The notes under the pieces were generated by a model. It did no database searches, was not told the origin of the DNA, and saw only the letters and a program-made list of their open reading frames with translations. Of a stretch of 33,398 bases of DNA, positions 13,877 through 33,398 are shown piece by piece (the first letter of the stretch is position 1; each line of letters starts with the position of its first letter). The DNA is from a virus. The stretch lies in the UHGV virus genome UHGV-0115916. One strand, given 5' to 3'. The translations under genes and the position numbers were made by a program.

Positions 13877-16800
13877 TTATTTATTCATTAGTTGTTGTAC
13901 TAATGCTTTTAGTTCATCAATTTGTGATTGTTGATAATCATTATCTTTCTTCAATGATTGAACCGATCCCATTAAATCCATAACAATTGGGTTAACATCG
14001 ATAGACGGTCTATCGCGTGTTAGTTGTTCTACTATGTTTCCTTCTTCATCAAGTACTTCATCATAGATTTCTGGATTGTGTTTCACATACTGAGGTGTGT
14101 TTATTTCTGACTCTTCGGCAATAATCCCAAAACGCTGGCGTTTTTGTTCATCATCTTTATAGACAAAATTAACCATTTTTTGAGATAAAATTCTTTCTAA
14201 CGCTTCGTCGGTTTTTGCTTCTACAATATCTTCTTTATAGTCTCTACCGGATGTACCTTGTAAAGCCAATGCACCACCACCTAGCGGTAGTGAGATCCAA
14301 TATTGTGGGCTTCCTGCTGCTGTGTAGGTCTGGAATCCGTAGTTGCCTACAGTTTCTGAAAAACCAGCACGGATACGTACAACACCATTTGATGCAAGAT
14401 TACATGTATAAGAGGCTGAACCGTTGGAACGTAGCATAATTGCATCAGTACCAGCACTTGAACCACCACACGTAACACGGTTGCTAGTTACATCGAATGT
14501 ACCAGCACATGTAGTATTACCTAATGCAGTAATAACACCGCCGAAATTCATGGTATTAGTAGTACGTGAATAGTTGAATAGAGCTACACCACCTGTATTA
14601 TCACGGTTTAAACGGAATGATCCACCATCTGCTACAAATAGATATGTACTATCTGAGGAATCCGATTCTACAAATGATAAACATGGGTTTGTACTGGTAA
14701 TAGTTAATGGGTTTGACGCTGCGTTAGAGAATTTAGCAGTACCATTATTAGTTACGTTGATACCCGGCGTTGTAATTAGACTACTGAAATAAGAGCCACC
14801 ATTACTAAAGGTCATTAAGCCCTGTCCAACGGTTGCGGAACCTTCACCAACATAGATACGTGCATCATAATCGTTTCCAGTACCGCTACTGTGAAAATCA
14901 ATAAATGATCCCGCCTTTGTTGTTGTACTGCCTAATTCAAAACCTACTGTACTTGTATTTAATGTACCAACCTGTAAGCCACCAGTTTTAATAGTTTGTG
15001 ACCCGTTCCATTGGTTACCACCATCTAGCGTTGGGATAGTTACACCCAATTGATCATTCGTTAGGTATTCTTTCCATGCAGTCCACCCCGCCGTACCAGC
15101 TAATACACGTCTCCATTTACGATTACTTGCGTAGGATGTATATTCTTGTACACAAGCCTGTGCGGTTCCTGCACCAGTTGGATATACGTATAAACCGCCA
15201 GCCTCGGCAATTGGGTATTTGTTAGCAGGGGTTGCACTTGCGTTTAGTGTTTGGTAATAGAATCCAGATTGAGCCGCACCCAATGTATCTAGGTTAACAC
15301 TAGCGGCTAGTGCCGTCTGACTACGGTACATTGCCTGTAAATTATTACGGGCTGCATCTACACTATTTGCACCAGTACCGCCCTCTGTAATTGCAAGTTT
15401 ATTCGTTAGTGTTAGTACACCATTGAAATGTAAACTTGCAGCCATAATATTCATTGAACCACTACCAGCCGCCGTAGTAGAACCGCCTGTAGATTGAATA
15501 CGAGAATCATAATCTACGGTACTACCGGAACTGTGAAAATCAATATAAGATGTACTAGCCGCTACTGTAGAGCCAATTTCAATACCGCCACCTGTGGAAG
15601 AATTAGCCGCAAATCTATTTTGATTGCCGTTAAATTGTTGGTTACCAGACCATGTATTTTCTGTACTTAATAGTGGGATTGTTGCACCAGAAGTACCAGT
15701 ATTAATTACTGCTGAAGTACCTAAGCCTAAGTTTGTACGTGCGTTAGCTACGTTAGTTAAATCAGATAGGTTACTTGCCTTAATAAGATACTTACCATCC
15801 ATTGCAGTACTTGTAACGATACCTAAGTTTACTTGTGCCTGTGCAACGGTACTAGCACCTGTGCCACCGTTCGCCACTGGTACGATATCGAAAGTACCCG
15901 CCGCTTTAACGCCTAAGTTTGTACGTGCTTCTGCTGCCGTCTTAGCACCAGTACCGCCATTTGCTACCGTTAGAGCTTGACCTAAAGTTAATGATCCTGC
16001 ACTTGCTACGCCTAAAGTAGAAGTAGTGGTTTTAATACTTTCACCAGTGATTGCACCAGTTGCCTCTACATCTGCACCCGTAATTTTATTTGCAGAAATT
16101 AAGCTATTGACTTTGACATTACCGGAAAATGTTTTATTCCCTGCAATAGTCTGATCACCAGTTAGAGCTACATACTTTGTATCACCTAGATTAGTTGTTA
16201 AAATACGTTGCCATGCGGTAGTCTGGTTTTTTGCATAGATTGCAAGTGAACCTGTTTTAGTCATTGCGATAGAACTAAAAGTAGTACCATCAATTAGACC
16301 TACACCCATCATATCAGCACTGGCTGGATTACCCACTTGTGACGCTGGGATCTTGATAAAGCTGTTACCTAGTGGGCGTTCTGGTTGATACTGTGGTACA
16401 TCACCACCATTACTACCTACACCATAGGAACCTTCTACTAATGCTGCACTTGCTAACGCCGTACCATCACGTGTAATAACGTCTGTAGGTACAAAAGAAT
16501 AGGTTTTCATTACTACGGTATCTTTATCACCAGATACGTTAGCTGATTGGATTTGACCATTAACCATTGAATAATTGATTAAACCATCTTCAATATTGTA
16601 GCGTAGTGTTAATTGAAATTCTTTTTGACTCTCGGTTGCAGCATCTAAGAAAGCATGTGTTTCATCATCTGGAATATAGTTAACAGTAATATCAATATTA
16701 TCTACGTTTTGTTCTGCTGCTAGTTTAGATGAGTACTCACTATCGTATGTTTCAAGTGTTTGTATCTCACTTTCGATTCCAAATGACGGCATCGCTGCCA

Positions 16801-20943: not shown

Positions 20944-21470
20944 TAACGCCCCCTATGAAATGTTGTAATAGATTTAATAGGGCTACCTGCGTTTAGTCCT
21001 TTCATATCTGAAATTAAATCGTTTGCCCTTTTAACATAGGTAGAACGTAGGCGTAGAAGTACTTCGCTTGATTCATAAGTTAGGGCTTTATTTTGTATTG
21101 ATTGACTTAGTACACCACCACCTTTAATACGGTCTAGTGTAATTTGGTCAATATCTTTTATGATCTGAATTAGATCATTATATTCTGAGGCTTTACTAGT
21201 TGGATCAGTTACTTCAAATTGTTGTACACCGTATGCTTTAGGACTATCAATAATTGCAGTCCAGATACCCACGCCCCACGTATTAGTATCAATATCAGGG
21301 AATGGGTAAACATAGGAAGTTTTAACACCGTTAGGATCTATCAAATCGATATTAGTTCCTTCTGGATAGTTGAAAGTAATTGTTTCACCTTTGATAATAT
21401 CGCCTTTTAAATCAACTTTGCGAACAATTGCCATTTGTTTTATTTCCTTATTTAAAGAATCCTCCACCAC
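20943..21470 (-). CDS. Hypothetical protein in the lambda gpW position (possible head-tail joining protein)
   Basis: 175-aa ORF between the large terminase and portal genes; no motif recognised. Confidence 0.4.
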   Translation of the reverse strand: MVEDSLNKEIKQMAIVRKVDLKGDIIKGETITFNYPEGTNIDLIDPNGVKTSYVYPFPDIDTNTWGVGIWTAIIDSPKAYGVQQFEVTDPTSKASEYNDLIQIIKDIDQITLDRIKGGGVLSQSIQNKALTYESSEVLLRLRSTYVKRANDLISDMKGLNAGSPIKSITTFHRGR

Positions 21471-23376
21471 GTCTAGACGGACGTACTACACGACCTGTTT
21501 TTACTGGTGCTGGTTCTTCTTTATTTACTTCTTTATTTAGTCCTTTCTCTTTTTGTTTGGCGTTGAATTCGCGTAGTTTGCGGAATGGCTGATTACCTAA
21601 TTTAGATAGATACCAGTGGAAACATATTAAAGCGTAGTTAAGACAATCAAGCGTTTCATTCCTTGCTGAACTAATTTTCTTAACCCATACCCACGCCCCA
21701 GCTTTAATAACTCTCTTCTCACTTGATACCTGAATAAAGTAATCATCTGGTACTGAATGGCTGAAGTGTATTTGTACTTCACTACTATTACCACTATCCG
21801 ATACTGCACGGTTTAATAGTTGTCTAATATTACTTTTCCCTAAGTTTACGTTTAGGTTTATTAGACTATGACCACCAGCCGTAGAGCCTTTAAAGAGTGG
21901 GTTAGTATTTGAAGTACCGCCCTTGATTGGTTTAAAGATTGTCGATGCACTACAATAGCGATATACCGTACTGGTTGCGTTACCGTTCGAACTATCTACA
22001 AAACCTGCAAGTACTTTAAGTGGTTTACCGGATACGGTTTTAAAGTTAGTTTGTGAAAATGCTGTTAGCTTATTCCATGCGGGAGCCTCTATTTTAGTAC
22101 AGTCAATGCTATGAATACTGCGATGATCGAGTACATAAAGATTCTTTTCACTTATTCCTAACGTTGTTACTTCAAGGCGGTCTAACTGTTGGTCTACACC
22201 TAGTACGATTCCTTGACAGTCATCCGGCACGGTATCTATATCTATTGAACTATCACGTAGGTTTTCAAGTAATACTAAATCATGATCGGTATTCTCTTTA
22301 TCAATATAAGGAAGTCCTAAGACGTTATTGTAGAATGAGGCTAGATCAAATGTATAATGTGCTTCGGCAAAATCCTGTACTATTGATTTGATCGAGTTAA
22401 TCGGGGAGTATAAACGGCTAATATGATACCCCATGATATCCGTTACTTCTGGTACTGTAGCTATCCATTCACCCTTACGTATCATTCTTACACGTTCGGC
22501 TTCTGTGATTACATTATTACACTTAGGACATTGTAGTTTTGCTGTCTCTGCATCTGGAATGCGACGACGACCACCATCAATAATTTTCCAGTCGAATTTA
22601 ACATTTTCAAATACTAATTCATGTGCATGATCACAATGTGGGCAAGGTACGTAGAACTTCTGTTTATTACTTTGCTCGTACTGCTGAGTGATTAAATCAT
22701 TCTCATCAAGTGGTGTAGAACAAACCATAATAAGAGGGTTGCTAAAAGCCTTTGTACGCTGTTCTGCTAGCTTTAGTGGGTTCCCTTCATCACCATCTGC
22801 ATCTACGTTAGATATTTCGTCAAGAAAGATACGGGGGGCTGTCAAGCCTCGCAAATTCGCACTACTACCCAATGTTAGGAAGTACGTAAAAGTACCGTCT
22901 AAGTTTTGTTGTGTCTTATCATTATTAGTATAGTTTTTATCATTCTTATTACTGACTAGATTTTTAAGTACTGCACATGCTTCGATTACTGATTGCCATT
23001 TACCAGTACGAAACTTACTAGTAGTGCTGGCTGTTGCACCTGCGAAAATTAGATTGCTTGGATCATTTGCGAGGAAGTAGTACATACTATTCTGTAAAAC
23101 TGTTGTTTTGAGAAGTTGTGCACTGCTCATCAAAACTATTTTTCTAATTCTTGGATTAGTAATGTCATTTATGGGCTTGTGCTGAAAGGAAAATAACTTT
23201 ACGCGTTGTCCTTGTAGTTCCCCATCCGGGAATACTAAATTATTCTCTACCCATTCCGCTGGTAGTTGTCGCTTCGGAGGTAGGATCGACTTCGCCGCCC
23301 TCGTTAGTACCTTCATCATCTTCTGGTAGTTGTTCATCCGTGTATGTTCCTTCATATTCATAGCTACCAATTTCAT
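21448..23376 (-). CDS. Terminase large subunit (lambda gpA-like)
   Basis: 642 aa; VPCPHCDHAHELVF ... CPKCNN zinc-ribbon-like segment and DCLNYALICFHWYLSKL parallel lambda gpA (VACPHCGEEQYLKF; EALDCFVYALAAL); true start probably an internal Met (about 23316-23361) because the track ORF overlaps the small subunit gene by 137 nt. Confidence 0.85.
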   Translation of the reverse strand: MKLVAMNMKEHTRMNNYQKMMKVLTRAAKSILPPKRQLPAEWVENNLVFPDGELQGQRVKLFSFQHKPINDITNPRIRKIVLMSSAQLLKTTVLQNSMYYFLANDPSNLIFAGATASTTSKFRTGKWQSVIEACAVLKNLVSNKNDKNYTNNDKTQQNLDGTFTYFLTLGSSANLRGLTAPRIFLDEISNVDADGDEGNPLKLAEQRTKAFSNPLIMVCSTPLDENDLITQQYEQSNKQKFYVPCPHCDHAHELVFENVKFDWKIIDGGRRRIPDAETAKLQCPKCNNVITEAERVRMIRKGEWIATVPEVTDIMGYHISRLYSPINSIKSIVQDFAEAHYTFDLASFYNNVLGLPYIDKENTDHDLVLLENLRDSSIDIDTVPDDCQGIVLGVDQQLDRLEVTTLGISEKNLYVLDHRSIHSIDCTKIEAPAWNKLTAFSQTNFKTVSGKPLKVLAGFVDSSNGNATSTVYRYCSASTIFKPIKGGTSNTNPLFKGSTAGGHSLINLNVNLGKSNIRQLLNRAVSDSGNSSEVQIHFSHSVPDDYFIQVSSEKRVIKAGAWVWVKKISSARNETLDCLNYALICFHWYLSKLGNQPFRKLREFNAKQKEKGLNKEVNKEEPAPVKTGRVVRPSRRGGGFFK

Positions 23377-23812
23377 TTAATTGATCATCTATTTTTTCCT
23401 GTAGTTTGATTTTTAATTCTAATGCGTCTGCTGATTCGAATAATTCAACATAACTTGACGCGGGAATACTTCTTAATACTTGGCGTAGTTGGTAGAAGTA
23501 TTGGGATAAAGTTTGCTGTACTACTGCTACTGGTATTAGCTCGCCGGATTGCTGACGTAATTCCATTTCTTTAATATCAGCTTCTGCTTCTAACTTACGT
23601 AGTGTTGCTTTTTGTATTTGGCCTTTTGTATCACCGCTTCTTAGTGGTTCGATTACGTTTGCAAGTAACCAATCGTCAACTAATTTCTTAGGCCAGGTGA
23701 TATCTAAACCTTTACCAGACCATATACGGCTAACAGTAGAATGCTCTACGCCGAAACGATCCGCGATTTCTTGCCACGTGTAGCGGGTTCCATCGTCTTT
23801 AATTTTTGCCAT
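23240..23812 (-). CDS. Terminase small subunit (Nu1-like, N-terminal HTH)
   Basis: Start reassigned to ATG 23812 (MAKIKDDG...) with AAGGA RBS; YTWQEIADRFGVEHSTVSRIWSGKG helix-turn-helix; acidic C-terminal tail; directly upstream of the large subunit. Confidence 0.75.
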   Translation of the reverse strand: MAKIKDDGTRYTWQEIADRFGVEHSTVSRIWSGKGLDITWPKKLVDDWLLANVIEPLRSGDTKGQIQKATLRKLEAEADIKEMELRQQSGELIPVAVVQQTLSQYFYQLRQVLRSIPASSYVELFESADALELKIKLQEKIDDQLNEIGSYEYEGTYTDEQLPEDDEGTNEGGEVDPTSEATTTSGMGRE

Positions 23813-23891
23813 TTTGTTTAGTCCTTGTTTAGTACAATAAACCTGTACTTTCCTTTTATTTCGTTTTGTTTGTTTTCGATTAGAAATCCCA

Positions 23892-23949
23892 CGAATTTTA
23901 AATACAATTCGCGGCGAAAACTCGATTTTTTTGTTCTCAATTAGAGAAC
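23892..23949. promoter_or_regulatory. Palindromic elements upstream of the terminase small subunit gene (candidate late operator / packaging-site region)
   Basis: CGAATT-N8-AATTCG (23892-23911) and perfect 17-bp palindrome GTTCTCAATTAGAGAAC (23933-23949) in the 229-bp intergenic region. Confidence 0.3.
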
Positions 23950-24041
23950 CTAAAGTTAAAACTTCACTCACGATTTTAATTTTTGATTTGTAATAATATT
24001 TATATTATCATTGTATTATAAAGTAACAACAAGGACATGTA

Positions 24042-24980
24042 ATGAAACACATAATCCAAACCAGAAGTGTTTTTAAGGATATCGAAGACTCTTTATTTAG
24101 TGAGTTGCATTCAGCTAAGACAAGTATCAAAATCTGTGTTGCATGGATAAACTTTGAGCTTTTTGAAAATATATTATTATCTAAGGCTAAAGAAGGTGTT
24201 GAAGTTGAGATATTAGTTAATAATGATTATATCAATACAAAATTTCTTGATAAAATATCTGATAATATAAAACCATTAATTAATCTAATTAAAAACCCTA
24301 TTAGTAACCACTTAATGCATCATAAATTTTGTATCATTGATGATGAAGTTTTGATTACTGGCAGTTATAATTGGTCAAAAAGAGCACCATATCATTATGA
24401 AAATATAATAATCATCCGTAATGATTTCAATCTAATAATGCAATTTAAACATGAGTTTGCAGATTTAAAATACATGGGTGCAATGCCAAGTACAGAATTT
24501 AATGCATTTAAAGTAACCAAAAATCTCAATAGATTTGTTGTTGGCACATATAGTTCATCTGTGGGGATATATGAAACCGTCACATTGCAGTTATGGGAAA
24601 TTGATATTAACAACTTAACTTTTGAACGACATGGCGAAATGGATATCCCTTTCTTCAATTATTTATTAGATATTAATACTGATGATCATTATCTTATTGA
24701 TGAAAAAGAAAGGTACATCGATCTATATGATCAAGAGCGTAGACAGATGGAGACTATCCAAAGTCATTTTAGAAGATTAAATTGTTCAATTCATGCTTAT
24801 GGAACAGCAATAATAGCGAACGAGAGCGAATACCTTGAAGGTTATGAAGAGCCTATTCGTGTAATTCACTTCAATTGGATAGATATGCGATTAAGCAAAG
24901 TATTACCCTCTTCTTTGCCCGCAACTATGGAACTTGAAGGATTATGGCACGAAATATATGCTCCAAATGGATATATTTAA
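24042..24980 (+). CDS. Phospholipase-D-family (single HKD motif) nuclease with uncharacterised C-terminal domain
   Basis: 312 aa; exact H-x-K-x4-D-x6-G-S-x-N motif at aa 93-110 (HHKFCIIDDEVLITGSYN); AAGGA RBS 6 nt before the ATG; AT-rich gene. Confidence 0.8.
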   Translation: MKHIIQTRSVFKDIEDSLFSELHSAKTSIKICVAWINFELFENILLSKAKEGVEVEILVNNDYINTKFLDKISDNIKPLINLIKNPISNHLMHHKFCIIDDEVLITGSYNWSKRAPYHYENIIIIRNDFNLIMQFKHEFADLKYMGAMPSTEFNAFKVTKNLNRFVVGTYSSSVGIYETVTLQLWEIDINNLTFERHGEMDIPFFNYLLDINTDDHYLIDEKERYIDLYDQERRQMETIQSHFRRLNCSIHAYGTAIIANESEYLEGYEEPIRVIHFNWIDMRLSKVLPSSLPATMELEGLWHEIYAPNGYI

Positions 24981-25012
24981 ATAATATTCTATAATTAATG
25001 AGGAACGGTATT

Positions 25013-25372
25013 ATGTCTAATTATCCTATACCACTTAGCCTTGAATTTAATAGTCAAGATACTGCTAATATCATTTGTAGTTATCTAGAAAAAAATCATC
25101 AAGATTCTATTTTAAAAACCATATTAAATATAGATTTGTCTTTTATTGATTATCGTGCACAATCTTCTAATTACTTTATAATTAATGACGTTGAATATAT
25201 TGGAGATAATAATTATATTTTATATTATAAAATAAACTACTACATTTATAATCTCTGTAAAGATATGGATATTGATGATGACTACGAGACTTCGATAAAT
25301 TTTACATTGAATAATGGATTTTTAGTATTTGATATAATTGATTGTGAAAGAAATATATCAGATGAAATATAG
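25013..25372 (+). CDS. Hypothetical acidic small protein, partner of the PLD-family nuclease
   Basis: 120 aa from ATG 25013 (GAGGA RBS 8 nt upstream; the track start 24998 lacks an RBS); Asp/Glu-rich (DMDIDDDYE, DIIDCERNISDEI); 32 nt downstream of the nuclease gene. Confidence 0.5.
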   Translation: MSNYPIPLSLEFNSQDTANIICSYLEKNHQDSILKTILNIDLSFIDYRAQSSNYFIINDVEYIGDNNYILYYKINYYIYNLCKDMDIDDDYETSINFTLNNGFLVFDIIDCERNISDEI

Positions 25373-25436
25373 CCATATTTAATTATCACTTAAGGATTTC
25401 AACATCAGGATTTAAATTTTAATTATATATAATAGT

Positions 25437-25468
25437 AAAAGCCTAATACTCATCAGTAATAGGCTTTT
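25437..25468. terminator. Bidirectional terminator hairpin between convergent accessory operons
   Basis: 9-bp stem AAAAGCCTA (25437-25445) / TAGGCTTTT (25460-25468) with a 14-nt loop; A/T-rich flanks. Confidence 0.5.
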
Positions 25469-25475
25469 ACCTAAA

Positions 25476-25895
25476 TTATAATTGATTCAATCGATAGATA
25501 TTAGATGTACTTGAGCCATCGCTATACACCTCTGATATAGTCAGTTTGTTTCCATCCACTTTGTATTTTACTACACTATCAGCCGGATCATTTCTCCAAC
25601 GACCTGAGCTATCTGGATTGTTTGATGCCCACATAACTTGATCATCAATCAGTTTGCACTTGATAGCCCATCTTGTGCTGTCATCTTTACGTATGTAATG
25701 GACATAGGCTACATCAGATTGAATCTTATCAAGCTTCATTATTTTATGATCTCGCCCAAACATAGATGCAGCCGCCGCTTTGCAGATCTGACCAACATTA
25801 GCTTCCGCTGCGTAGAGTGAAGAACTGAACAATAATGGCACAATCACTAATAACTTTATCATCGCATATCGTCTCGTAGTAAAAATTAATTTCAC
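25476..25895 (-). CDS. Exported (signal-peptide) protein of unknown function
   Basis: 139 aa; GTG start at 25895 with AAGGA RBS; N-terminus MKLIFTTRRYAMIKLLVIVPLLFSSSLYA-AEA is a classical signal peptide; 1-nt gap to the upstream HNH gene. Confidence 0.6.
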   Translation of the reverse strand: MKLIFTTRRYAMIKLLVIVPLLFSSSLYAAEANVGQICKAAAASMFGRDHKIMKLDKIQSDVAYVHYIRKDDSTRWAIKCKLIDDQVMWASNNPDSSGRWRNDPADSVVKYKVDGNKLTISEVYSDGSSTSNIYRLNQL

Positions 25896-25896
25896 C

Positions 25897-26622
25897 TTAT
25901 TTCCTTAATAACTTTTTTAATTCCTCAACTGTCTTCATTTCTTTTCCAATATGAATCATTGCATGACAGTTTGCACATAAAGGTATAAGATCTTCAATTG
26001 GGTCAATCTTATAGCGTTTACCAATAGTATGTAGTGGCACTATATGATGAACATGAATATAATTTTTTCCGTGACTTCCATACACTTCTTCAAAATTAAA
26101 ACCACAGACACCACAACTCAAACCATGTTTATCGATACATTCTTTTCTAGCCTTTGGATCTCTCTCATAGTACGTAGCAATCCTTTGATGCTTTTCACCT
26201 TCATAGTATTCACTTTCTATTTCAGGTGTGAATGAATAGTAATCTTCATCGGTGGCATACCAATCTCCATCTTTTTTAGTAAGATATTTTCGTACTATTT
26301 TCTTTTCAAAATGTTTAATCCTAGCAGCACCATTTTCAGTTGTTTTCTCATGCCTAGTCTGGCTAAAGGTGAAAAGACTATACCCTTCATGTAAAATTTT
26401 ATCTATGTGTTCGATAGATTGTGTATAACCATTTTTTTTGTGTCCATTTACATTTTCACGCCAACTGCTAGCCAAGATTAAAACTTTCTTACCATCATCT
26501 GATCTAAGATCTTCCCAAGCTCCAAAAATTATTTTTTTGTTGATCTCATCAATAAATGACCAACTCCAGTTATCATTTTTACATGTAGCACCCAAAGAAC
26601 GCATGAACTCTGTTCGGGACAT
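25897..26622 (-). CDS. HNH nuclease (restriction / McrA-like) with N-terminal domain of unknown function
   Basis: 241 aa; C-terminal HNH motif CGVCGFNFEEVYGSHGKNYIHVHHIVPLHTIG ... LIPLCANCHAMIH; AAGGA RBS; N-terminal ~150 aa Trp-rich domain not identified. Confidence 0.75.
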   Translation of the reverse strand: MSRTEFMRSLGATCKNDNWSWSFIDEINKKIIFGAWEDLRSDDGKKVLILASSWRENVNGHKKNGYTQSIEHIDKILHEGYSLFTFSQTRHEKTTENGAARIKHFEKKIVRKYLTKKDGDWYATDEDYYSFTPEIESEYYEGEKHQRIATYYERDPKARKECIDKHGLSCGVCGFNFEEVYGSHGKNYIHVHHIVPLHTIGKRYKIDPIEDLIPLCANCHAMIHIGKEMKTVEELKKLLRK

Positions 26623-26659
26623 TTTTCATCCTTAAAATATGTGACCTACATCACATGAA

Positions 26660-26742
26660 ACTATCGACTGTAGGAGGTTTCTATCCTTCGTAAAGCTAAC
26701 AAACCTACCCAAAGTAGATAGAAACCTCCTACAATCGATAGT
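26660..26742. repeat. 26-bp near-perfect inverted repeat between divergent operons (candidate operator or RNA structure)
   Basis: Left arm ACTATCGACTGTAGGAGGTTTCTATC (26660-26685), right arm GATAGAAACCTCCTACAATCGATAGT (26717-26742); 25 of 26 positions complementary; 31-bp spacer. Confidence 0.7.
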
Positions 26743-26802
26743 GTATGTGTGTTCCTTTTGATGGTAAAGTATTAATATAGTGTTACCTAGACTGGGTGTA
26801 CA

Positions 26803-26808
26803 TATAAT
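26803..26808 (+). promoter_or_regulatory. Candidate -10 element (TATAAT) for the membrane-protein operon
   Basis: Perfect TATAAT 18 nt upstream of ATG 26826; no convincing -35 found, and the region is so AT-rich that this is weak evidence. Confidence 0.25.
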
Positions 26809-26825
26809 CAATATTTGGGTTTGAT

Positions 26826-27536
26826 ATGCTTAATCTCACTAAATGTAATTTACTTTTGATCGGCACTGTAATAACTCTATTACTGATAGCTATTCTTGTA
26901 GGTATAAAAATACTATTCTCCGATTCTAATCCAGATCTAGGCAGCTTAGCAGATTGGATCAGTTCTGTATCCGCAATAGGGACTCTTGGTGTTGCCTGGT
27001 TAGCTTATAGTAAAGCTGATGACTACATTGACAAAAAAGCTTCGGAAAGAGGAATTGATATCCTTGTCAATATGGTAACTGAATCATTCGTTGCTTATTT
27101 CAACTCACTAAATGAAACTAATTTCCATGCTTCAAAACTTGAAAATAAAATGATATTGATTGGCTTGGTTGATGAAAAAGTAGATTGCAATATTGAACTA
27201 CAATCATTAAGAGAAAAAATCATAACTCTCTTCGAAAATAGTCATCAAATAGACAAAGATTTTATAAAAATGAAAATAATGAAAATATCAAAACCCAGTG
27301 ATATTTTCTACGATCCAGTAACTAGCGATGATACATTGCAAGCGTTAAAATTAGCATTTCATAAACTGAACACTGAAATTTGTGAGAATGAAAATCAATA
27401 CAACATTAATAATGATTTACTTAGCGAAAATATCAACTTTATTAAAAACACTACCGAAAAGTTAGCCCATGATATTCGCAAACAGTTCTTTACCTCGCCG
27501 AATACTTATAAAGATTATTTTGGAAATCTGTCTTAA
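26826..27536 (+). CDS. Signal-anchored membrane protein (paralogue of the 1056..1796 product)
   Basis: 236 aa; N-terminal helix LLLIGTVITLLLIAILVGIKILF, DLGSLADWISS motif, second hydrophobic stretch, then a ~170-aa soluble domain. Confidence 0.6.
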   Translation: MLNLTKCNLLLIGTVITLLLIAILVGIKILFSDSNPDLGSLADWISSVSAIGTLGVAWLAYSKADDYIDKKASERGIDILVNMVTESFVAYFNSLNETNFHASKLENKMILIGLVDEKVDCNIELQSLREKIITLFENSHQIDKDFIKMKIMKISKPSDIFYDPVTSDDTLQALKLAFHKLNTEICENENQYNINNDLLSENINFIKNTTEKLAHDIRKQFFTSPNTYKDYFGNLS

Positions 27537-27581
27537 ATTATACGCTATCAAATATTCCATCAACATAAACAAGGAAAGTAG

Positions 27582-28280
27582 ATGACTACTCTCACTAGAA
27601 CTTATAATTTACCAAATGAGCTAGTTGAACATTTTTCAAATAACATTGTCTATTTCGAAAAACTTTTGTCTAAGGATTTTTCTGACTTAAATGTTAATGT
27701 AGCACCAGAAGACATTAAGAAAATAGAAAAATCTTTCGAAGTATCACATAGAATACGTGATTTCGAAATCAATCTGTATTGGCAAAGACTGAACTTCCTT
27801 TGGGCCATTACAGCATTGCTATTTGCTGGATGGGGAACATTGATCTTTAAAATCATCGAATTCAATGGAGGGGAAGCACCTTATATTATATTTGCCGCCT
27901 TATCATTTCTCTCACTTATAGGTGGGATTGTAACTATATTCACAAGCTTTATCATTGAGGCAGGTAAGCATTGGCAAAAGGTTTGGGAGTTTCATGTTCA
28001 CGCTCTTGAACCTTTTGTATCAGGTCATTTATATGCAATTCAGTTTTCTTATAAAAATAAAAAAAAGGCATCTATAAGTAGAAGCGTAGAAACTTTCAAT
28101 TATGCTTTGCTGTTTCTTTGGGCATGTTCAGCAGTATTCGCCGCAATCATCCCTTCACAAATAGGGAACGGTCTTGCAGGCATTATCCAATTAGTTATTT
28201 CTCTTCTTATAGTTGGTGCTTTTGTTTATATACGCAACTCTGTTACTAAAAAGGAGTCTATTAAAATTCAGCTTGATTAA
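27582..28280 (+). CDS. Integral membrane protein with about four predicted helices
   Basis: 232 aa; ~70-aa soluble N-terminus, then hydrophobic segments (LNFLWAITALLFAGWGTLIF; YIIFAALSFLSLIGGIVTIFTSFII; ALLFLWACSAVFAAIIP; LAGIIQLVISLLIVGAFVYI); AAGGAAAG RBS; 45 nt downstream of the 26826..27536 gene. Confidence 0.6.
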   Translation: MTTLTRTYNLPNELVEHFSNNIVYFEKLLSKDFSDLNVNVAPEDIKKIEKSFEVSHRIRDFEINLYWQRLNFLWAITALLFAGWGTLIFKIIEFNGGEAPYIIFAALSFLSLIGGIVTIFTSFIIEAGKHWQKVWEFHVHALEPFVSGHLYAIQFSYKNKKKASISRSVETFNYALLFLWACSAVFAAIIPSQIGNGLAGIIQLVISLLIVGAFVYIRNSVTKKESIKIQLD

Positions 28281-28300
28281 TGTAGCATAAGGCATCTACT

Positions 28301-28510
28301 TTAAGCAGCCCCATAATGGGGCTTTCTTTTTTTAGCATTTACTTTTTGAATGCTCATAAGAATCTCACGTACCTTTGCTTCATTATCACCTGCATCATAT
28401 AGTACCCCATCTTTCCAGTACTGACCCAGTAGTTCTACTTTTGGTAAGCCCGGCATTGCCCTTACTCCATCTTCGTGATCAATATGTAATTCAAGTGATC
28501 CAATAATCAT
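28301..28510 (-). CDS. Hypothetical small protein
   Basis: 69-aa ORF; start overlaps the upstream ORF by 4 nt (ATGA-type coupling); 3' end overlaps the terminator hairpin. Confidence 0.4.
   Translation of the reverse strand: MIIGSLELHIDHEDGVRAMPGLPKVELLGQYWKDGVLYDAGDNEAKVREILMSIQKVNAKKRKPHYGAA
28307..28333 (+). terminator. Intrinsic terminator of the plus-strand membrane-protein operon
   Basis: 7-bp stem AGCCCCA (28307-28313) / TGGGGCT (28317-28323), 3-nt loop, then TTCTTTTTTTT. Confidence 0.65.
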
Positions 28511-28707
28511 TGCACGAAAGTTGTTAGGGTTAATTGAAAGTATTCTGCATCGTCTGGTTGTAGTTCAGCGTAATATTCTGGTGTGCTATCAAATGTAATT
28601 TCATTATTGATCATTACGCCCTGTGTATTTACTGCATATCTACGTTGTTTCATTCGGTCAAATAATAGTATTCCTTTCACGCGGTGATATGTTGTTAGTT
28701 CCCTCAT
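28507..28707 (-). CDS. Hypothetical small protein
   Basis: 66-aa ORF with 4-nt overlaps at both ends. Confidence 0.4.
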   Translation of the reverse strand: MRELTTYHRVKGILLFDRMKQRRYAVNTQGVMINNEITFDSTPEYYAELQPDDAEYFQLTLTTFVQ

Positions 28708-28967
28708 TTGGTTAGTCCTTGGTAGTAAGCCTTAGTAGCTCTGATATTGAATTCTTTGTTTAGGTGTGTATATGATGGCATATGCCCGTTATCCGTCATG
28801 TATCGCTCTATGTAGGCCGTAAGTAGTTCTAACTTGGTTGGGCTTACATCTGGTGTATCACTCAATAGAGAGCGTTTAGGGGCGTTATAGAGGCCATCAC
28901 TTCGACCGCCTTGATTCTTGATATTGTGGCGTAGTGTATTCCACTTACCGGGCTTTTGTTTTGGCAT
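28704..28967 (-). CDS. Hypothetical small basic protein (87 aa from ATG 28967)
   Basis: Start reassigned from the track GTG (29033) to ATG 28967, which has an AGGAG RBS; the discarded N-terminal extension lies in a GC-rich repeat block. Confidence 0.45.
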   Translation of the reverse strand: MPKQKPGKWNTLRHNIKNQGGRSDGLYNAPKRSLLSDTPDVSPTKLELLTAYIERYMTDNGHMPSYTHLNKEFNIRATKAYYQGLTK

Positions 28968-29000
28968 AGTATTGTACTCCTGTACTGGTTGATTAATTGG

Positions 29001-29045
29001 GGCGGCGACTCGTTCACACCTGCGGCGGTTCACTGCGTGGCGACT
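29001..29045. repeat. GC-rich block with short direct repeats
   Basis: GGCGACT occurs at 29004 and 29039 and GTTCAC at 29012 and 29028, inside an otherwise AT-rich region. Confidence 0.5.
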
Positions 29046-29109
29046 TCAAGAGACTTTGAATAACTGACTTTCAGTAGTATCTCTTGAGTACTTACACCTA
29101 CTGGAGTGA

Positions 29110-29164
29110 GCGAAAGCGAGAAAAGCACGCTTGCGGGTTTTCGATGCGATAGCGAGAAAAACGC
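29110..29164. repeat. Imperfect ~19-bp direct repeat pair (iteron-like)
   Basis: GCGAAAGCGAGAAAAGCACGC (29110-29130) and GCGATAGCGAGAAAAACGC (29146-29164); AGCGAGAAAA core at 29115 and 29151 (36-bp period). Confidence 0.6.
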
Positions 29165-29191
29165 AATGTGATACCCTTATGTGTTTTTTAT

Positions 29192-29249
29192 AGGGATAAT
29201 AGATAAGACGCTTTAGCGGATTAGCTATTATCCCTCTGAATAATAGATA
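29192..29249. repeat. 11-bp perfect inverted repeat plus 10-bp direct repeat
   Basis: AGGGATAATAG (29192-29202) and its complement CTATTATCCCT (29225-29235); ATAATAGATA at 29196 and 29240. Confidence 0.6.
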
Positions 29250-29272
29250 TGGCGTATTTTATATCTGTTTTT

Positions 29273-29432
29273 CATCTTTCCATTAGAAAGTAGGATAATT
29301 ATAATAGGTTGGAAAGATGCCATTTTGCCCCCCATTTTAACGGTAGAATGCGGGTTTCAGGGGTGTTGTTGGCCATATTTTCACACCATCTTTCCATCAA
29401 AGGGATTCCCACGCTAAACAGTTGGAAAGATG
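29273..29432. repeat. Four copies of an 11-bp motif (TTGGAAAGATG) in alternating orientation
   Basis: CATCTTTCCAT at 29273-29283 and 29387-29397 (latter written with one flanking base as 29387-29398); TTGGAAAGATG at 29309-29319 and 29422-29432; forms two inverted pairs with 35-36 bp offsets. Confidence 0.7.
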
Positions 29433-29434
29433 AT

Positions 29435-29911
29435 TTATAGTGAATTTATGTATACCTTGATACTTCCTAAGCTAGTTCCATCCCTCATCATCTGGTGTAC
29501 TTTCTTTTTTTCGTGCTGTGTTAGCTGTCGTGCATCACCCTTTAGTGCATACTTGATCATTACGCCGTGATTGTATGCCTCTAATAGTTCGTGTGCGGCC
29601 TTTACTGCAATGTTTCTATAATTATATAGCATTGACTTGTTTAGCGGCTTCTCGTTCCATTTCATGCGATTCTGGCGGCGAGTATTCACGGTATGTTGTA
29701 CTTCCTCTATTCCAATCATAGGACACTCTAAAACCAGCTTTAGGATCTCTAACCTACTAACCTTAGTACGGCTAGTGGTTCCTTCAAACTCTTTAGTAAT
29801 GACTTCATCAATAATATCTATTGCTTCTGGTGTAAACTGATTCAAAAACTTATAACCTGATAAAACGTTGTGTAAGTCTGTATTGTCGTATAATTTCTTT
29901 TTTCCTGCCAT
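29435..29911 (-). CDS. Hypothetical protein, possible DNA-binding regulator
   Basis: Start reassigned to ATG 29911 (MAGKKKLYDN...) because the track start codon at 29974 lies inside the stem of a strong hairpin; basic protein with no confident motif. Confidence 0.45.
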   Translation of the reverse strand: MAGKKKLYDNTDLHNVLSGYKFLNQFTPEAIDIIDEVITKEFEGTTSRTKVSRLEILKLVLECPMIGIEEVQHTVNTRRQNRMKWNEKPLNKSMLYNYRNIAVKAAHELLEAYNHGVMIKYALKGDARQLTQHEKKKVHQMMRDGTSLGSIKVYINSL

Positions 29912-29948
29912 AATAAATACCTTTATAAAATGTGTTATGTTCCTTAAT

Positions 29949-29986
29949 GGCGTTATGGTGTTTTCTCCCACCATAACGCCTTTTTA
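29949..29986 (+). terminator. Strong hairpin (12-bp stem) with trailing T-run
   Basis: GGCGTTATGGTG (29949-29960), 8-nt loop, CACCATAACGCC (29969-29980), then TTTTTATT on the plus strand; lies between the homing endonuclease stop and the 29911 start. Confidence 0.45.
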
Positions 29987-30472
29987 TTAGTTGTCTTTTG
30001 CAACCTTTGTATATGTCTGTCTATGTGTACTTCTATTGTACTTTTCATTCATGAATAGCGTGATATTGATACATGACATTCCACCAGTGTATAACGCCTT
30101 TACTTCATCTTTTTGTACTGGTGTTAGACGTGGTTCATTTTGTTTCTTACGTACTGCCTTACATGAATTTTCACTATATGTAATCCACTGCAAATTAGAA
30201 ATATTGTTGTCTCGTTTATCACTATTGATATTATCTACAACTAATCTTTTATTTGTTTGGGGTTTACTTAGAAATGTTTCTGCTACGAGTCTGTGTGTCT
30301 CTATCGGATATGATTTAGATTTCCCATCCTCATAAACAGTTAAAGTAACTTTATAGTACCCATTACTTTTACTATAACTCTGTGTTAGATAATTACCCGT
30401 TTTAGTATTGCGTACTTCTCCGTTACTACTTACTTCATAATTTACATATTGTGTTTGTTTCCATAATGTCAT
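29987..30472 (-). CDS. HNH homing endonuclease-like protein (NUMOD4 + HNH_3-type)
   Basis: 161 aa; YEVSSNGEVRN...NGYY.V.L...GKSKSY.IHRLVAETFL (NUMOD4-like) followed by VVDNINSDKRDNNISNLQWITYSEN (HNH_3-like). Confidence 0.75.
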   Translation of the reverse strand: MTLWKQTQYVNYEVSSNGEVRNTKTGNYLTQSYSKSNGYYKVTLTVYEDGKSKSYPIETHRLVAETFLSKPQTNKRLVVDNINSDKRDNNISNLQWITYSENSCKAVRKKQNEPRLTPVQKDEVKALYTGGMSCINITLFMNEKYNRSTHRQTYTKVAKDN

Positions 30473-30550
30473 TTTCTCTTCCTTGGACTATGGGGTACTG
30501 TGCAATCCTTGCAAGTACATGAGTAATACTTTTTACGATAGTATCAAACG

Positions 30551-30772
30551 TTATTGATTTTCGATTAGTAGTTTGAAAGTTGGAAAATTCATCCTTTCAA
30601 ATAGTTCTGTATGTAGTTTACGTGTTGTGTGGTAATACTTCATATCTTTATAGAAATCAGAATGGATTACCGTATTACAGTACGTTTTACCATTTGGTTT
30701 AGATACATCTGCAATTAGTACATTGTCGGTATCGGTACGTACATTGTTAAAATGGAATTCGCCAAAGTTCAT
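30551..30772 (-). CDS. Hypothetical small protein (possible toxin-like partner of the RHH protein)
   Basis: 73 aa; start codon overlaps the stop of the upstream RHH gene (TAATG); no motif recognised. Confidence 0.45.
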   Translation of the reverse strand: MNFGEFHFNNVRTDTDNVLIADVSKPNGKTYCNTVIHSDFYKDMKYYHTTRKLHTELFERMNFPTFKLLIENQ

Positions 30773-30927
30773 TACTTCTTTCCTCCTAAGATTACTTGTT
30801 GATTGAGTAGATATTGTAAAGCGGTACTCATTGATTTTGCTTTCCCTTCATCAATGATACTTTGTAGTACATTGTGTTGATGTTCGTTTAGACGTGCTGA
30901 TACTTTGTATTCTTTATTTTCTTTCAT
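30772..30927 (-). CDS. Ribbon-helix-helix (Arc/CopG-like) DNA-binding protein (51 aa; not in the ORF track)
   Basis: Hand-translated MKENKEYKVSARLNEHQHNVLQSIIDEGKAKSMSTALQYLLNQQVILGGKK; beta-strand-like KVSARL followed by two helices; AAAGGAAAA RBS before ATG 30927. Confidence 0.5.
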   Translation of the reverse strand: MKENKEYKVSARLNEHQHNVLQSIIDEGKAKSMSTALQYLLNQQVILGGKK

Positions 30928-30974
30928 TGATTTTCCTTTTGTCTGCAAATCCTTAAAAATTTCATGTAAAAATC

Positions 30975-30994
30975 ACCCCGTAGGGATACGGGGT
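30975..30994 (-). terminator. Hairpin upstream of the RHH gene (possible terminator of upstream minus-strand transcription)
   Basis: 8-bp stem ACCCCGTA (30975-30982) / TACGGGGT (30987-30994) with GGGA loop; followed on the minus strand by a GAUUUUUA tract. Confidence 0.35.
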
Positions 30995-31125
30995 AATAAC
31001 AAAATCTAAGGAGGAGGGATTTTAATATTCACACTTATTTATGAGATGAGAGCGGTCGCCCCCTTCATATACTATTATTATATCACATTTTGCCCATTTC
31101 GTCCCAGAAATCGACAAAATCAATT

Positions 31126-31290
31126 TTAAGTGGCTGATTTATATGTATTTATTACAGAAGTCGCGATTATCGCCATAATGCATAAGAAGAGATATACTAA
31201 AAATGCAATGTATAGATAAACTATCCACCCGGTGATCATAAACACCATACCTACCACTAATACAAAAGCACTGACTAACCAATCTAACAT
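31126..31290 (-). CDS. Small hydrophobic membrane protein (54 aa; not in the ORF track)
   Basis: Hand-translated MLDWLVSAFVLVVGMVFMITGWIVYLYIAFLVYLFLCIMAIIATSVINTYKSAT; AAGGGGA RBS before ATG 31290; two predicted helices. Confidence 0.3.
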   Translation of the reverse strand: MLDWLVSAFVLVVGMVFMITGWIVYLYIAFLVYLFLCIMAIIATSVINTYKSAT

Positions 31291-31334
31291 AGTTTCCCCT
31301 TATAATTATTATGTACAATTATTTATCAATAAGA

Positions 31335-31375
31335 CGAAAAAAAGCCCCGTAATGCGACATCAATCGATACGGGGC
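31335..31375 (-). terminator. Intrinsic terminator downstream of the integrase gene
   Basis: 8-bp stem GCCCCGTA (31344-31351) / TACGGGGC (31368-31375); on the minus strand the stem is followed by UUUUUUU (complement of 31337-31343). Confidence 0.55.
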
Positions 31376-31449
31376 ATAACAACTACTACTATATTATTTT
31401 TTGTTTACGGTATTTCTAATCTACTTTCTAGGCCAAAATAAATGCCCGT

Positions 31450-33348
31450 CTAGATCTGGTCTATCCGATAACGCTCTATGAACTCTTTACGTGTTAAACC
31501 AGTCGATTCTAATGCAGTGGCTATATCCTTTGGAACTCGACCATTCAAGGCAATACTATATGTATTGCCTTCATACACAATGTCTACTCGATCATACTTT
31601 CCGGTATTAGGCCAGAATGAAGCCCCACTTATTTCACTATAACCAACCACTTCTAACATCTCATTAGCAGTATTGAACAGATCTAAATAACTTTGTTCAA
31701 TTTTATCAAGTTGTTCCACTGCTTTATTAAATAATGGCAGATTGCTAGTGGTAAGAAATCCTTCATCTCTGATACTTACATTATCAACAGAAGAAAATTC
31801 AACTTTAAACGCCCAATGTGGTTTTCTATCAGTTCCACCAAAAACTAACCATTCATCTTTAAAATGATACTTTATTTTTATCGTTATACACCCATCAGTT
31901 TTATCAACTATAACACTTTCAATAATAGAACTAATTACTTTCCTTATTTTATTTCTATCCGTATCCTGCATATTTGTAAAAACCGCCCACTGAATAAGAA
32001 TCATAAATTCATTTATATCGACTTCTAGAGATCCTTTACCTTTCAGTGAATATAAGCGTTCTTTTAACTTATCAACTTCCAGAACAGTCTTTTTACGTTC
32101 CATATCAAACGCATTTAGTTGAACTGCTAACGCACTAACATTAGGAGCAATTGCTATTGCTTGAGCCATGTTTGTTATGCGAGATTCCAGATCAGTTATC
32201 AACGTTTCTTTTCTACTGAGGTCTTCTTCTATCACAGTTGTGTCAATACCATCTTTTAGTCTCTTATTCATGTAACCGATCAGTAGTGAAATGATCGTAC
32301 AGTGTTCAACTAATTGTGCTGATATAGACCAGCCAGAACAGTTTTTTTGTAAGTGAACCCCATTAGTACAAATATAGCGAGCACTGCCATGATTCATGAA
32401 AGAATGCATAGTTCCTCCACACTTGCTACACCGTAACACCTGCAACCCTGATAACAATTTAATTTCTTCTACTTTGTCTTTCTTAGCCTTGAAGTTGTTT
32501 TGCTGCTTACGTTCAGCCAAGGTTAAATACTCTGCTTCATCTTTGCATAACCATGGATAGTAGTTATCAAGTTTGTAAGTAGCACCACCAGCATTGATAG
32601 TCCTTTCACCAATCAACGCCCGATTATCACGCATCTTTTTCAATACCTGATAATCCCATTCTTTACCCTTTAAACCATTAGGATATTTTTTATCGAGATG
32701 ACGCTTTACTGTATAGATGCCATTCCCATCTAAAAACATGTCTATAGCTTCGCGAGCGATACTCCAGTAAACGGGATGTTCTTTTACTGCTTCATATTGC
32801 GAACCTGAATCATCTATCCAAAATGGATGGCGACCAACTGACTTAATGTTTACTGGCAACCCTGCTTTATGACGTTCGACCAAGGCAACAACATTGCCTA
32901 TGGTCCTGTTAGATTTCGTTTCTGATTCTTCATTGCCACGGATAAACATCAGAATAGAAATCATCAGATCAGTAGGGTTTTGTCTGATGGATTCTCTGTT
33001 ATAGACCTTCCGATCCATTCCTGTGACAATCGTTAGCCCTAAACCAATCAATTCAAGGAATAAACGAAGTGCTTCATCCACCTGATCGCGTGATAGTCGG
33101 TCGAGGTTTTCACAGTAAAGCCAAGAGTCAGACGGTATAGCATTATTTTTTACGGCGTCTATGAAGTCACCCAACTTACCCGCCCTATTTTTTCCCCTGT
33201 AAGCACTCGTGCCAGGTTCCAAAATTTCAACCATTTCAAGCCCCGCTTCTTCAGCATAGGCTTTCGCTGCCGCTACCTGCCTGTTCTTGGTTGTTCCTTT
33301 TTCTTGGCGATCACTTGACCACCTGATATAGCTATAAAGTTGCGGCAT
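31450..33348 (-). CDS. Large serine recombinase (phage integrase)
   Basis: 632 aa; N-terminal resolvase-type catalytic domain (YIRWSSDRQ with the serine nucleophile; ...RLSRD...), recombinase domain, Cys-rich zinc-ribbon segment (CSKCGG...C...C) and long C-terminal coiled-coil-like region. Confidence 0.85.
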   Translation of the reverse strand: MPQLYSYIRWSSDRQEKGTTKNRQVAAAKAYAEEAGLEMVEILEPGTSAYRGKNRAGKLGDFIDAVKNNAIPSDSWLYCENLDRLSRDQVDEALRLFLELIGLGLTIVTGMDRKVYNRESIRQNPTDLMISILMFIRGNEESETKSNRTIGNVVALVERHKAGLPVNIKSVGRHPFWIDDSGSQYEAVKEHPVYWSIAREAIDMFLDGNGIYTVKRHLDKKYPNGLKGKEWDYQVLKKMRDNRALIGERTINAGGATYKLDNYYPWLCKDEAEYLTLAERKQQNNFKAKKDKVEEIKLLSGLQVLRCSKCGGTMHSFMNHGSARYICTNGVHLQKNCSGWSISAQLVEHCTIISLLIGYMNKRLKDGIDTTVIEEDLSRKETLITDLESRITNMAQAIAIAPNVSALAVQLNAFDMERKKTVLEVDKLKERLYSLKGKGSLEVDINEFMILIQWAVFTNMQDTDRNKIRKVISSIIESVIVDKTDGCITIKIKYHFKDEWLVFGGTDRKPHWAFKVEFSSVDNVSIRDEGFLTTSNLPLFNKAVEQLDKIEQSYLDLFNTANEMLEVVGYSEISGASFWPNTGKYDRVDIVYEGNTYSIALNGRVPKDIATALESTGLTRKEFIERYRIDQI

Positions 33349-33398
33349 CTATATAATCCCCGGCATTGTGAGCAACTGATTGTACAAAAAAATGTCTA

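Follow-up and report, generated by a model that had tools for sequence, protein, structure and literature searches.

A mobile three-cassette island beside the small terminase gene of an enterobacterial prophage, with a probable role in the exclusion of other phages

Prophage hotspots are the most productive source of new anti-phage systems, and have so far been charted mainly in P2-like phages, P4 satellites and a few other groups. In P2-like phages and P4 satellites, the cos-proximal hotspot (the old/tin locus) keeps a constant position next to the packaging genes while its gene content is quickly swapped between otherwise similar temperate phages; Old and DUF4238, validated anti-phage genes, are among its occupants (Rousset et al. 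2022, PMC9122126). Rapid swapping, as well as near-identical cargo shared by unlike elements of the P2/P4 type, has been documented (Moura de Sousa et al. 2026, PMC13586616). Here we describe a slot of this kind in the UHGV virus genome UHGV-0115916, a sequence of 33,398 nucleotides (hereafter the window) that corresponds to a prophage of about 33 kb with an overall G+C content (GC) of 36.8% and nearly all of its backbone genes on the minus strand. The slot lies between the small terminase gene (terS) and the early genes, and holds an island of about 4.5 kb with six genes, encoding two nucleases, two membrane proteins and two small proteins. The closest known thing to this locus is the cos-proximal hotspot; the window is a case in an unrelated lineage, expected in kind, with some parts undescribed.

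We compared the window with 16 loci fetched through the large terminase (TerL), and with more relatives from protein look-ups and E. coli genomes (designated by L numbers). In close relatives the genes from terS to the head module share 60-90% amino acid identity with the window, and the backbone is 70-80% identical in nucleotide sequence as far as 23812-23953, where homology breaks. This loss is seen in 12 relatives and two E. coli prophages, which fall into a group with the break at 23812-23815 and a group with the break at 23923-23953; homology, where regained, restarts at 28153-28370 (L011, L006, L008). Between these borders the slot holds at least 10 different gene contents. It is occupied by same-strand hypothetical genes in L003, L004, L006-L008 and the E. 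coli prophages L036 and L037, and by an Old-family ATPase-TOPRIM gene in L005 and L009 (PADLOC Old, 1.4e-74). In L012 it contains two separate genes for the two-transmembrane "TM-helical" protein described below, one of them followed by a DUF4238 gene (1.6e-23), plus a gene for a LprI-domain secreted protein. L011 exhibits the HNH endonuclease and secreted-protein genes of the window together with a different membrane cassette, and L015, L016, L032, L034, L049 and L053 exhibit varied combinations of TM-helical and 8xMP membrane protein genes. An earlier note on this DNA, made from its letters alone, had proposed that the whole of 23813-31449 is laterally acquired cargo. The gene set at the slot does differ among phages instead of being the same in all relatives, and the proposal holds for 23846-28331 on the strength of the comparison with relatives and not of composition; the right-hand 40% (28332-31449) is backbone. 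As the sequence comparison shows, it is 23846-28331, and not all of 23813-31449, that forms a mobile accessory island in a hypervariable slot.

Evidence for mobility comes from two relatives. The core proteins of L057 are only distantly related to those of the window (46% identity for TerL, 45% for the portal, 40% for the capsid and 30% for TerS), yet L057 carries the same six genes in the same order, with identities of 79% for the PLD nuclease, 75% for the 124-aa acidic protein, 88% for the secreted protein, 95% for the HNH endonuclease and 87.5% for the 8xMP protein. Homology to the L057 island runs from 23846 to 28331, with 84% nucleotide identity over 23846-26776 and 27602-28331. A transfer of the block as a unit between distantly related phages is thereby strongly supported. 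In L011, identity to the window reaches 93.9% over the HNH cassette (25475-26791) but only 75.6% over the backbone, with breakpoints of the cassette at a hairpin at 25435-25470 and just past another at 26660-26742. The homology breaks, the identity of the HNH cassette in L011 and that of the block in L057 together argue for the lateral acquisition of 23846-28331. On the left, the island is bordered by a spacer (23813-24041, 26.6% GC) containing a hairpin (23889-23914, z = -3.7) and a promoter-like site on the plus strand (23983-24011) for the first cassette. On the right, a terminator on the plus strand (28307-28331), consisting of a GC-rich hairpin (28307-28323, z = -2.1) and a T-run, ends the membrane cassette, and the homology with L057 stops at its last position, 28331. 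No convincing direct repeats flanking the island were found.

The slot thus resembles the P2/P4 hotspot in its fixed position beside the packaging genes of a temperate phage, in its quickly swapped content, in having Old-family and DUF4238 genes among its occupants (here in the relatives L005, L009 and L012) and in the presence of near-identical cargo in dissimilar elements (PMC13586616). It differs in that the phage lineage is unrelated, having a lambda-type GpA terminase, a serine integrase and siphovirus-like tail genes, and in that its position is defined by the adjoining terS, beside which a cos site may lie. The occupants of the slot in the window are also not among the known systems, and form a composite of three cassettes moving as one block. 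We thus describe a new hotspot with precise borders in an AT-rich enterobacterial prophage lineage that is uncultured, and a composite island that has moved as a whole between phages about 45% identical in their core proteins.

The six genes form three bicistronic cassettes, each with its own orientation and hairpin terminators, and four of the six run antisense to the direction of the backbone. The cassettes are autonomous. From the slot occupants of the relatives (Old, DUF4238), the defence-island neighbourhoods of the cellular homologues, the moron-like architecture and the analogy with RexAB and Sie systems, we infer that the island is expressed from the prophage and protects the lysogen by excluding other phages at three levels; we regard this as the probable function of the island. 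It supplies as candidates a widespread HNH family with a putative SRA-like domain, a PLD family with a second domain, and, as the chief candidate, a recurrent pair of a two-transmembrane and an 8xMP protein.

Modification-dependent enzymes such as EcoKMcrA (of the e14 prophage), TagI and ScoMcrA combine a reader domain with a following HNH domain and have no adjacent methyltransferase. The HNH gene of the window (25897-26622, minus strand) exhibits the same architecture, with a putative reader, and is likewise borne by a prophage, as is mcrA. Its product of 241 aa has two domains, an N-terminal beta-barrel and a C-terminal McrA-type HNH domain (PF01844, 3.6e-8) that is closest in sequence to EcoKMcrA (E-value = 4e-8) and ScoMcrA. 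The catalytic and zinc residues of the HNH domain (H192, H193, N218, H220, C170, C173, C216, C219) are invariant. The protein belongs to a distinct family of about 245 aa, the members of which are about 45% identical over their full length, and its N-terminal domain (about 125 aa) is strongly conserved across phyla. In contrast to the known enzymes, no solved reader domain matches this N-terminal domain in sequence, and its fold similarity to SRA domains is no more than modest, so that an SRA-like modified-base reader is merely suggested. The cassette has no cognate methyltransferase, being made of the HNH gene and the secreted-protein gene only; the single methyltransferase gene of the window (50-763) is located at the left end of the backbone, 25 kb away. 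Judging from its domains, the 241-aa enzyme is a candidate type IV (modification-dependent) restriction enzyme. Homologues are found in Pseudomonas putida in the neighbourhood of a Gabija-like AAA_15/OLD-TOPRIM gene, a UvrD-type helicase gene and a GmrSD_N gene, and in E. coli within a small integrative island.

Downstream of the HNH gene, a gene at 25476-25895 (minus strand; probable start ATG at 25862) encodes a secreted protein of about 129-139 aa with a Sec signal (a hydrophobic segment at residues 10-30, then LYA/AE) and two cysteines. It is linked to the HNH gene in L011 (95% identity) and L057 (88%), and exhibits no family match and no known domain. Eighteen nucleotides upstream of the HNH start codon there is a perfect TGTGA-N6-TCACA palindrome (26640-26655), the core consensus of the CRP type, which is placed between the long hairpin described below and the ribosome-binding site; it is partly kept in L011 and L016 and degenerate in L057. 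In L015 (5005-5728) the HNH homologue is split over two frames, in fragments of 45% and 63% identity, and represents either a pseudogene or a sequencing error.

The first cassette (plus strand) begins with a gene at 24042-24980 encoding a 312-aa nuclease of the PLD superfamily. Its N-terminal domain (residues ~6-147) is similar to Nuc of pKM101, NucT and Zucchini in catalytic fold and HKD residues: it exhibits the HxK(x)4D motif and the single-HKD fold, and H93, K95 and D100 are invariant. The C-terminal domain, about 165 residues long, is a conserved feature of a family of proteins of 305-325 aa that is spread over Proteobacteria; no solved structure matches it. The restriction enzymes BfiI and NgoAVII also have a PLD domain fused to a second domain. 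However, they align with the window protein over the PLD domain only (135 and 131 residues, respectively), the C-terminal domain here is not B3-like, and the cassette contains no partner methylase. The PLD restriction enzyme SauUSI has a helicase, which is absent from the window protein. Homologues of the PLD nuclease are located in variable islands: the neighbour is a SIR2_2 gene in Pseudomonas and an IS element in Klebsiella, and in Acinetobacter the gene is part of a mobile element. The second gene (24998-25372, 22.9% GC) is on the same strand and co-transcribed with the PLD gene. It encodes a 124-aa acidic protein (pI 4.05), which accompanies the PLD gene in L001, L002 and L057 (75% identity); among protein families it matches only phrog_13663, and that weakly. 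Where the PLD and HNH cassettes converge there is a bidirectional hairpin (25435-25470; -17.6 and -21.8 kcal/mol, z = -6.2 and -6.3 on the two strands), next to which the homology with L011 begins at 25475.

The third cassette (plus strand) encodes two membrane proteins. The TM-helical protein (26826-27536, 236 aa) has an N-terminal hairpin of two transmembrane (TM) segments, with the motif GSxxDWxSSxSxxGT...AYxKAPxW, and a hypervariable cytoplasmic helical domain of about 170 aa. Pfam, PADLOC, PHROG and NCBIfam contain no match to it. When 1.8 billion representatives were searched exhaustively and without profiles, 65 clusters were found, most of which match the N-terminal ~90 residues only. 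The TM-helical gene of L057 is 53% identical to that of the window over the first 74 residues and unalignable after these, in contrast to the flanking genes with 87-95% identity. The C-terminus has thus been replaced inside a conserved island, and such hypervariability is as expected of a specificity determinant. The 8xMP protein (27582-28280, 232 aa) has four TM segments, seen as four hydrophobic segments in the hydropathy profile, and matches the Pfam family 8xMP (PF24838) over residues 51-187 (61.1 bits against a cut-off of 30); it has no sequence match in PDB. Its homologues are labelled "RipA family octameric membrane protein" by the sources. The literature did not reveal to us where the names "8xMP" and "RipA octameric" come from; the matches to "RipA" there are to RIPA buffer (e.g. 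in the SNIPE paper).

Eight cassettes of this phage group combine TM-helical with 8xMP genes; as that of L057 is part of the same island, seven are distinct. The pairing is found in the window, L015, L032, L034, L049, L053 and L057, in both gene orders, and includes duplications (three TM-helical copies in L034; an 8xMP gene on either side of the TM-helical gene in L032). TM-helical genes are also found with other partners, either DUF4238 or a 304-aa protein. The 8xMP gene is found elsewhere together with DUF2971, as a moron in a lambda-like tail operon that in one of three loci (L025) lies about 3 kb downstream of an AbiJ-like gene. Lambda RexAB, gp30/31 of the mycobacteriophage Sbash and the lactococcal Sie2009-type systems, which are two-gene membrane exclusion systems expressed from the prophage, are similar in organisation, being prophage morons that pair a polytopic membrane protein with a partner having a variable cytoplasmic domain, in a non-essential slot and with highly diverse alleles. 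The likeness does not go beyond organisation. Neither window protein resembles these systems in sequence or profile, PADLOC, Pfam and PHROG giving no match for the pair other than 8xMP; both window proteins are membrane-anchored, and the putative effector here belongs to the 8xMP/RipA family.

A second, divergent TM-helical paralogue is encoded by the window at 1056-1796 (minus strand, 246 aa, 27.9% GC), sharing the GSLADW[IL]SS motif (GSLADWLSS) with the protein at 26826-27536 (BLASTP E-value = 5e-6). It occupies a separate moron slot, between the methyltransferase gene and the lysis genes (holin), so that the prophage has two paralogues at two moron sites.

The spacer between the divergent HNH and TM-helical genes contains a long conserved hairpin (26660-26742, minus strand) with arms of 26 bp. 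The predicted energy is -50.3 kcal/mol (z = -11.8), and the stem is kept by compensatory changes, at 10 of 34 pairs among four sequences. The loop is a near-invariant 14-mer, TGGGTAGGTTTGTT (26698-26711, minus strand). It recurs within unrelated stems in L012, L015, L032, L049, L053 and L025, and these stems stay paired. The loop is located at 4883-4896 in L011, 7311-7324 in L012, 4939-4952 in L015, 2907-2920 in L016, 3379-3392 in L032, 5663-5676 in L049, 3705-3718 in L053 and 3490-3503 in L025, and the hairpin of L057 at about 8610-8695. In every case the hairpin precedes, by 60-260 nt and in antisense orientation, the gene that opens a TM-helical/8xMP cassette, or, in L025, a lambda-like Enterobacter prophage, the AbiJ-like gene. 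Wobble pairs favour the minus strand by 3:1, and the consensus energies of the two strands are equal. An intrinsic terminator can be rejected, there being no T-run after the stem on either strand, and so can a known RNA family, the only Rfam matches being miRNA-like and below threshold. A scan of IMG/VR with a 16-mer loop motif gave 18 matches, five of them in this phage group (three known, two new) and 13 chance-like.

Tentatively, and with rather more doubt than confidence, we suggest that the TM-helical and 8xMP proteins constitute an undescribed two-component anti-phage system acting at the membrane and spread as a moron among prophages and plasmids. The hypervariable domain would provide specificity and an 8xMP oligomer would be the effector, while the structured element with its variable stem and invariant TGGGTAGGTTTGTT loop, heading the cassette, would control its expression or mobility.

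The exclusion that we propose would operate as follows. At a first level, the McrA-type HNH enzyme, with a putative modified-base-reading N-terminus and no partner methyltransferase, would cut incoming modified DNA by type IV restriction. At a second level, the Nuc-like PLD nuclease, presumed homodimeric, would degrade foreign nucleic acid; its C-terminal domain could be a targeting or regulatory module, and the acidic 124-aa protein may inhibit or modulate it. At a third level, a RexAB/Sie-like membrane pair would act: the variable cytoplasmic domain of the two-TM protein would recognise a phage component, and the four-TM 8xMP oligomer would be the membrane effector, by a block of entry or a collapse of the membrane. 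The secreted protein of 129-139 aa may act in the periplasm against entry.

Several observations weigh against this proposal. No protein of the window matches a complete PADLOC 2.0 system, the matches being to nuclease domains only. The promoter scan is not enriched over shuffled sequences (48 sites against 43 expected), and the synonymous-site composition of the island is that of the backbone. The 8xMP gene is also found alone in the leading regions of plasmids, beside psiA, psiB, ssb and radC; leading regions are associated with anti-defence and establishment genes. Nor are the small proteins conserved partners of the nucleases outside this phage group. The HNH loci of E. coli and Pseudomonas have no linked gene for the secreted protein, and the 124-aa protein is absent beside the PLD homologues of Klebsiella, Pseudomonas and Acinetobacter, so both were rejected in that role.

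Composition deserves separate treatment, as the earlier note had read low GC as the signature of foreign DNA. Its spot counts are exact (11/60 G+C at 25081-25140, 32/60 at 15901-15960), and 23813-31449 is indeed AT-rich as a whole (33.5% GC against 37.8% elsewhere), but 28301-31449 is average with 36.5%. The low GC is confined to about 23.8-28.3 kb. It amounts to 31.3% over 23954-28150, with 27.0% at 23972-25475 and 32.5% at 26826-28300, and rises to 40.7% at 28301-29434; the spacers of the island have 23-27%. The lowest-GC segment of 4.2 kb in the entire sequence begins at 23801 (31.1%, about 2.9 standard deviations below the mean; mean 36.9% and standard deviation 2.0 for all such segments). 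However, the six hotspot genes and 20 structural genes do not differ in their pooled GC at third codon positions (GC3; 0.255 and 0.261, respectively; Mann-Whitney p = 0.74), so that the codon usage gives no foreign signature. GC at first positions (GC1) does differ (0.398 against 0.498, p = 0.0008), and the residues FLIMYNK make up 47% of the hotspot proteins against 36% of the structural proteins. The compositional difference thus lies at the first two codon positions and in the spacers, and not at synonymous sites; the paralogue gene at 1056-1796, outside the region, is equally AT-rich. The AT-richness of the region is real, and reflects protein make-up and spacers. Because the cargo and the structural genes have the same GC3, composition alone is no proof of foreign origin, a point of method for any region where low GC comes from amino acid make-up.

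One may go further and hold that there is no special region at all, but simply membrane and small proteins with AT-rich spacers in an AT-rich phage. The equality of GC3 and the location of the difference in GC1, GC at second positions and spacers are what this explanation predicts, and the prophage has 36.8% GC overall, compared with 57% in the short stretch of host DNA beside an E. coli relative. It leaves unexplained the homology breaks, the alternative contents of the slot and the 84%-identical block in a phage with a 46%-identical TerL, by which it is refuted as a full account; very unlikely as such, it stands only as an account of the GC signal itself. The island genes could also be ordinary phage housekeeping genes, the HNH protein being a terminase-associated packaging nuclease, the PLD protein a replication or recombination enzyme and the membrane proteins regulators of lysis. 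HNH genes beside terminase genes are a known packaging arrangement, exemplified by HK97 gp74, and the island is between the packaging and early modules. Yet relatives whose TerL is 85-88% identical, the E. coli prophages among them, lack the island genes, for which reason we rejected the packaging role of the HNH protein. The island genes also have no full-length homologues in 50,697 deposited phage genomes, while homologues are common in bacterial chromosomes. In protein searches of these phage genomes the 8xMP, TM-helical and 124-aa proteins had no match, and the PLD and HNH proteins had partial matches at the level of the nuclease domain only. The lysis cassette is elsewhere (1857-4262), and the HNH protein has an extra N-terminal domain conserved across phyla. 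We consider a housekeeping role of the island extremely unlikely.

The main competing explanation is that the island serves the phage itself in counter-defence or establishment: the 124-aa protein would be a DNA mimic or anti-restriction protein, 8xMP and its partners would help the genome on entry, and the targets of the nucleases would be the DNA of the host or of competitors in the lytic cycle. The 8xMP homologues in plasmid leading regions and the acidity of the 124-aa protein (pI 4.05) are consistent with this, as is the position next to terS, which would put the island at the genome end if cos is there. However, the cassettes are oriented independently of a single-direction backbone, with four of six genes antisense to the minus-strand phage genes, and have terminators of their own, which is the pattern of morons; their slot-mates in relatives are the defence genes Old and DUF4238. 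McrA-type enzymes without a methylase, as encoded by the e14 prophage gene mcrA, protect the host in known cases. On balance a counter-defence role seems unlikely. Somewhat more unlikely still, in our opinion, is that the cassettes are selfish addiction modules of the toxin-antitoxin kind, kept by post-segregational killing and hitch-hiking in the slot with no specific anti-phage role. Each of the three consists of two genes, one for a nuclease or membrane protein that could be toxic and one for a small or variable partner, and the cassettes move between unrelated elements. The small partners, though, are not conserved with the nucleases elsewhere, where PLD and HNH homologues stand alone; and this explanation overlaps with exclusion by the lysogen, because many toxin-antitoxin-like modules are themselves abortive-infection systems. 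Protection of the lysogen against other phages is the explanation that we retain as probable.

To the right of the island is the early-gene module (28301-31290, minus strand). Its gene order recurs in L032 and in two E. coli prophages, L036 and L037, where the homologues have 22-56% amino acid identity. The module is therefore divergent but syntenic backbone, and not cargo. It comprises small genes (28301-29033), a 179-aa protein (29435-29974), a homing-type endonuclease with NUMOD4 and HNH_3 matches (29987-30472), to which relatives have only distant counterparts at that position (25-35% identity), a 58-aa probable ribbon-helix-helix protein (30772-30948; the E. coli homologue is so named by RefSeq) and a 54-aa membrane peptide (31126-31290), all on the minus strand. 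Hairpins are located at 29949-29980 (z = -8.3) and 30972-30997 (z = -4.2). These two and those at 25435-25470 and 28307-28323 are far more stable than shuffled sequences, so that the hairpins mentioned in the earlier note are real, and the three strand switches that it described are found at about 25.4, 26.7 and 28.3 kb. The nuclease and membrane genes that it mentioned are likewise real, but its regulators come down to one candidate, the 58-aa protein. In the largest spacer of the early region (401 nt, 29034-29434) there is an imperfect palindrome of 38 nt at 29175-29252, 76% complementary with arms 2 nt apart, which may be an operator or an origin; the sequence flanking it (29070-29200) is 80-86% identical in L011 and L009 despite differing neighbour genes.

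The remainder of the backbone is that of an uncharacterised, siphovirus-like prophage lineage of Enterobacteriaceae integrating via a serine recombinase. From the left, the methyltransferase gene is followed by the lysis cassette (1857-4262) and by tail, head and portal genes. The large terminase gene, of the lambda GpA type (21448-23376), and terS (23240-23812, minus strand; phrog_57, E-value = 4e-19), the last backbone gene before the variable slot, follow. The probable start of terS is the ATG at 23812, while the listed open reading frame extends to 23971; homologues of 570 nt in E. coli are labelled "terminase small subunit" by RefSeq. The gene is kept in 15 of the 16 loci fetched through TerL, that of L013 being just under the 25% length cut. 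The prophage ends with a large serine recombinase gene (31450-33348, minus strand) with Resolvase, Recombinase and Zn_ribbon_recom domains (phrog_95, 1.6e-45). In the E. coli relatives L036 and L037 the recombinase is 26% identical and located beside a disrupted yegD gene, and these relatives are integrated at yegD; the serine recombinases of lineage members are mutually only 24-26% identical. A contig of Pseudocitrobacter faecalis DSM 27453 and one IMG/VR contig encode proteins 98-100% identical to those of the window. Among deposited phages there is no megablast match for 23000-33398, and the closest TerL among 50,697 phage records is 36% identical, so that the lineage is without a cultured representative. 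Scans of the window for tRNAs and Rfam families found nothing.

Several minor observations concern the lineage. Its GC is about 37-39% against about 50-57% in the hosts; in an E. coli relative, the prophage has 39% and the short host flank 57%. No replication gene is recognisable in the window, and the relatives L006 and L013 have early-region proteins of 645 and 954 aa that are possibly helicase/primase-like by sequence motifs. The lysis cassette contains a gene resembling SegE-type GIY-YIG homing endonucleases (3046-3483, minus strand; PF19835, 3.8e-17). In L016 (IMGVR_UViG_2225789004_000342, 5954-9663), terS and the first 28 codons of terL are fused directly to a homologue of window positions 4312-4959, which the lysis genes follow; the identity is 90-95%. 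The contig lacks every head and tail gene and is either a deletion derivative, that is, a defective or satellite-like element keeping the hotspot, or a misassembly.

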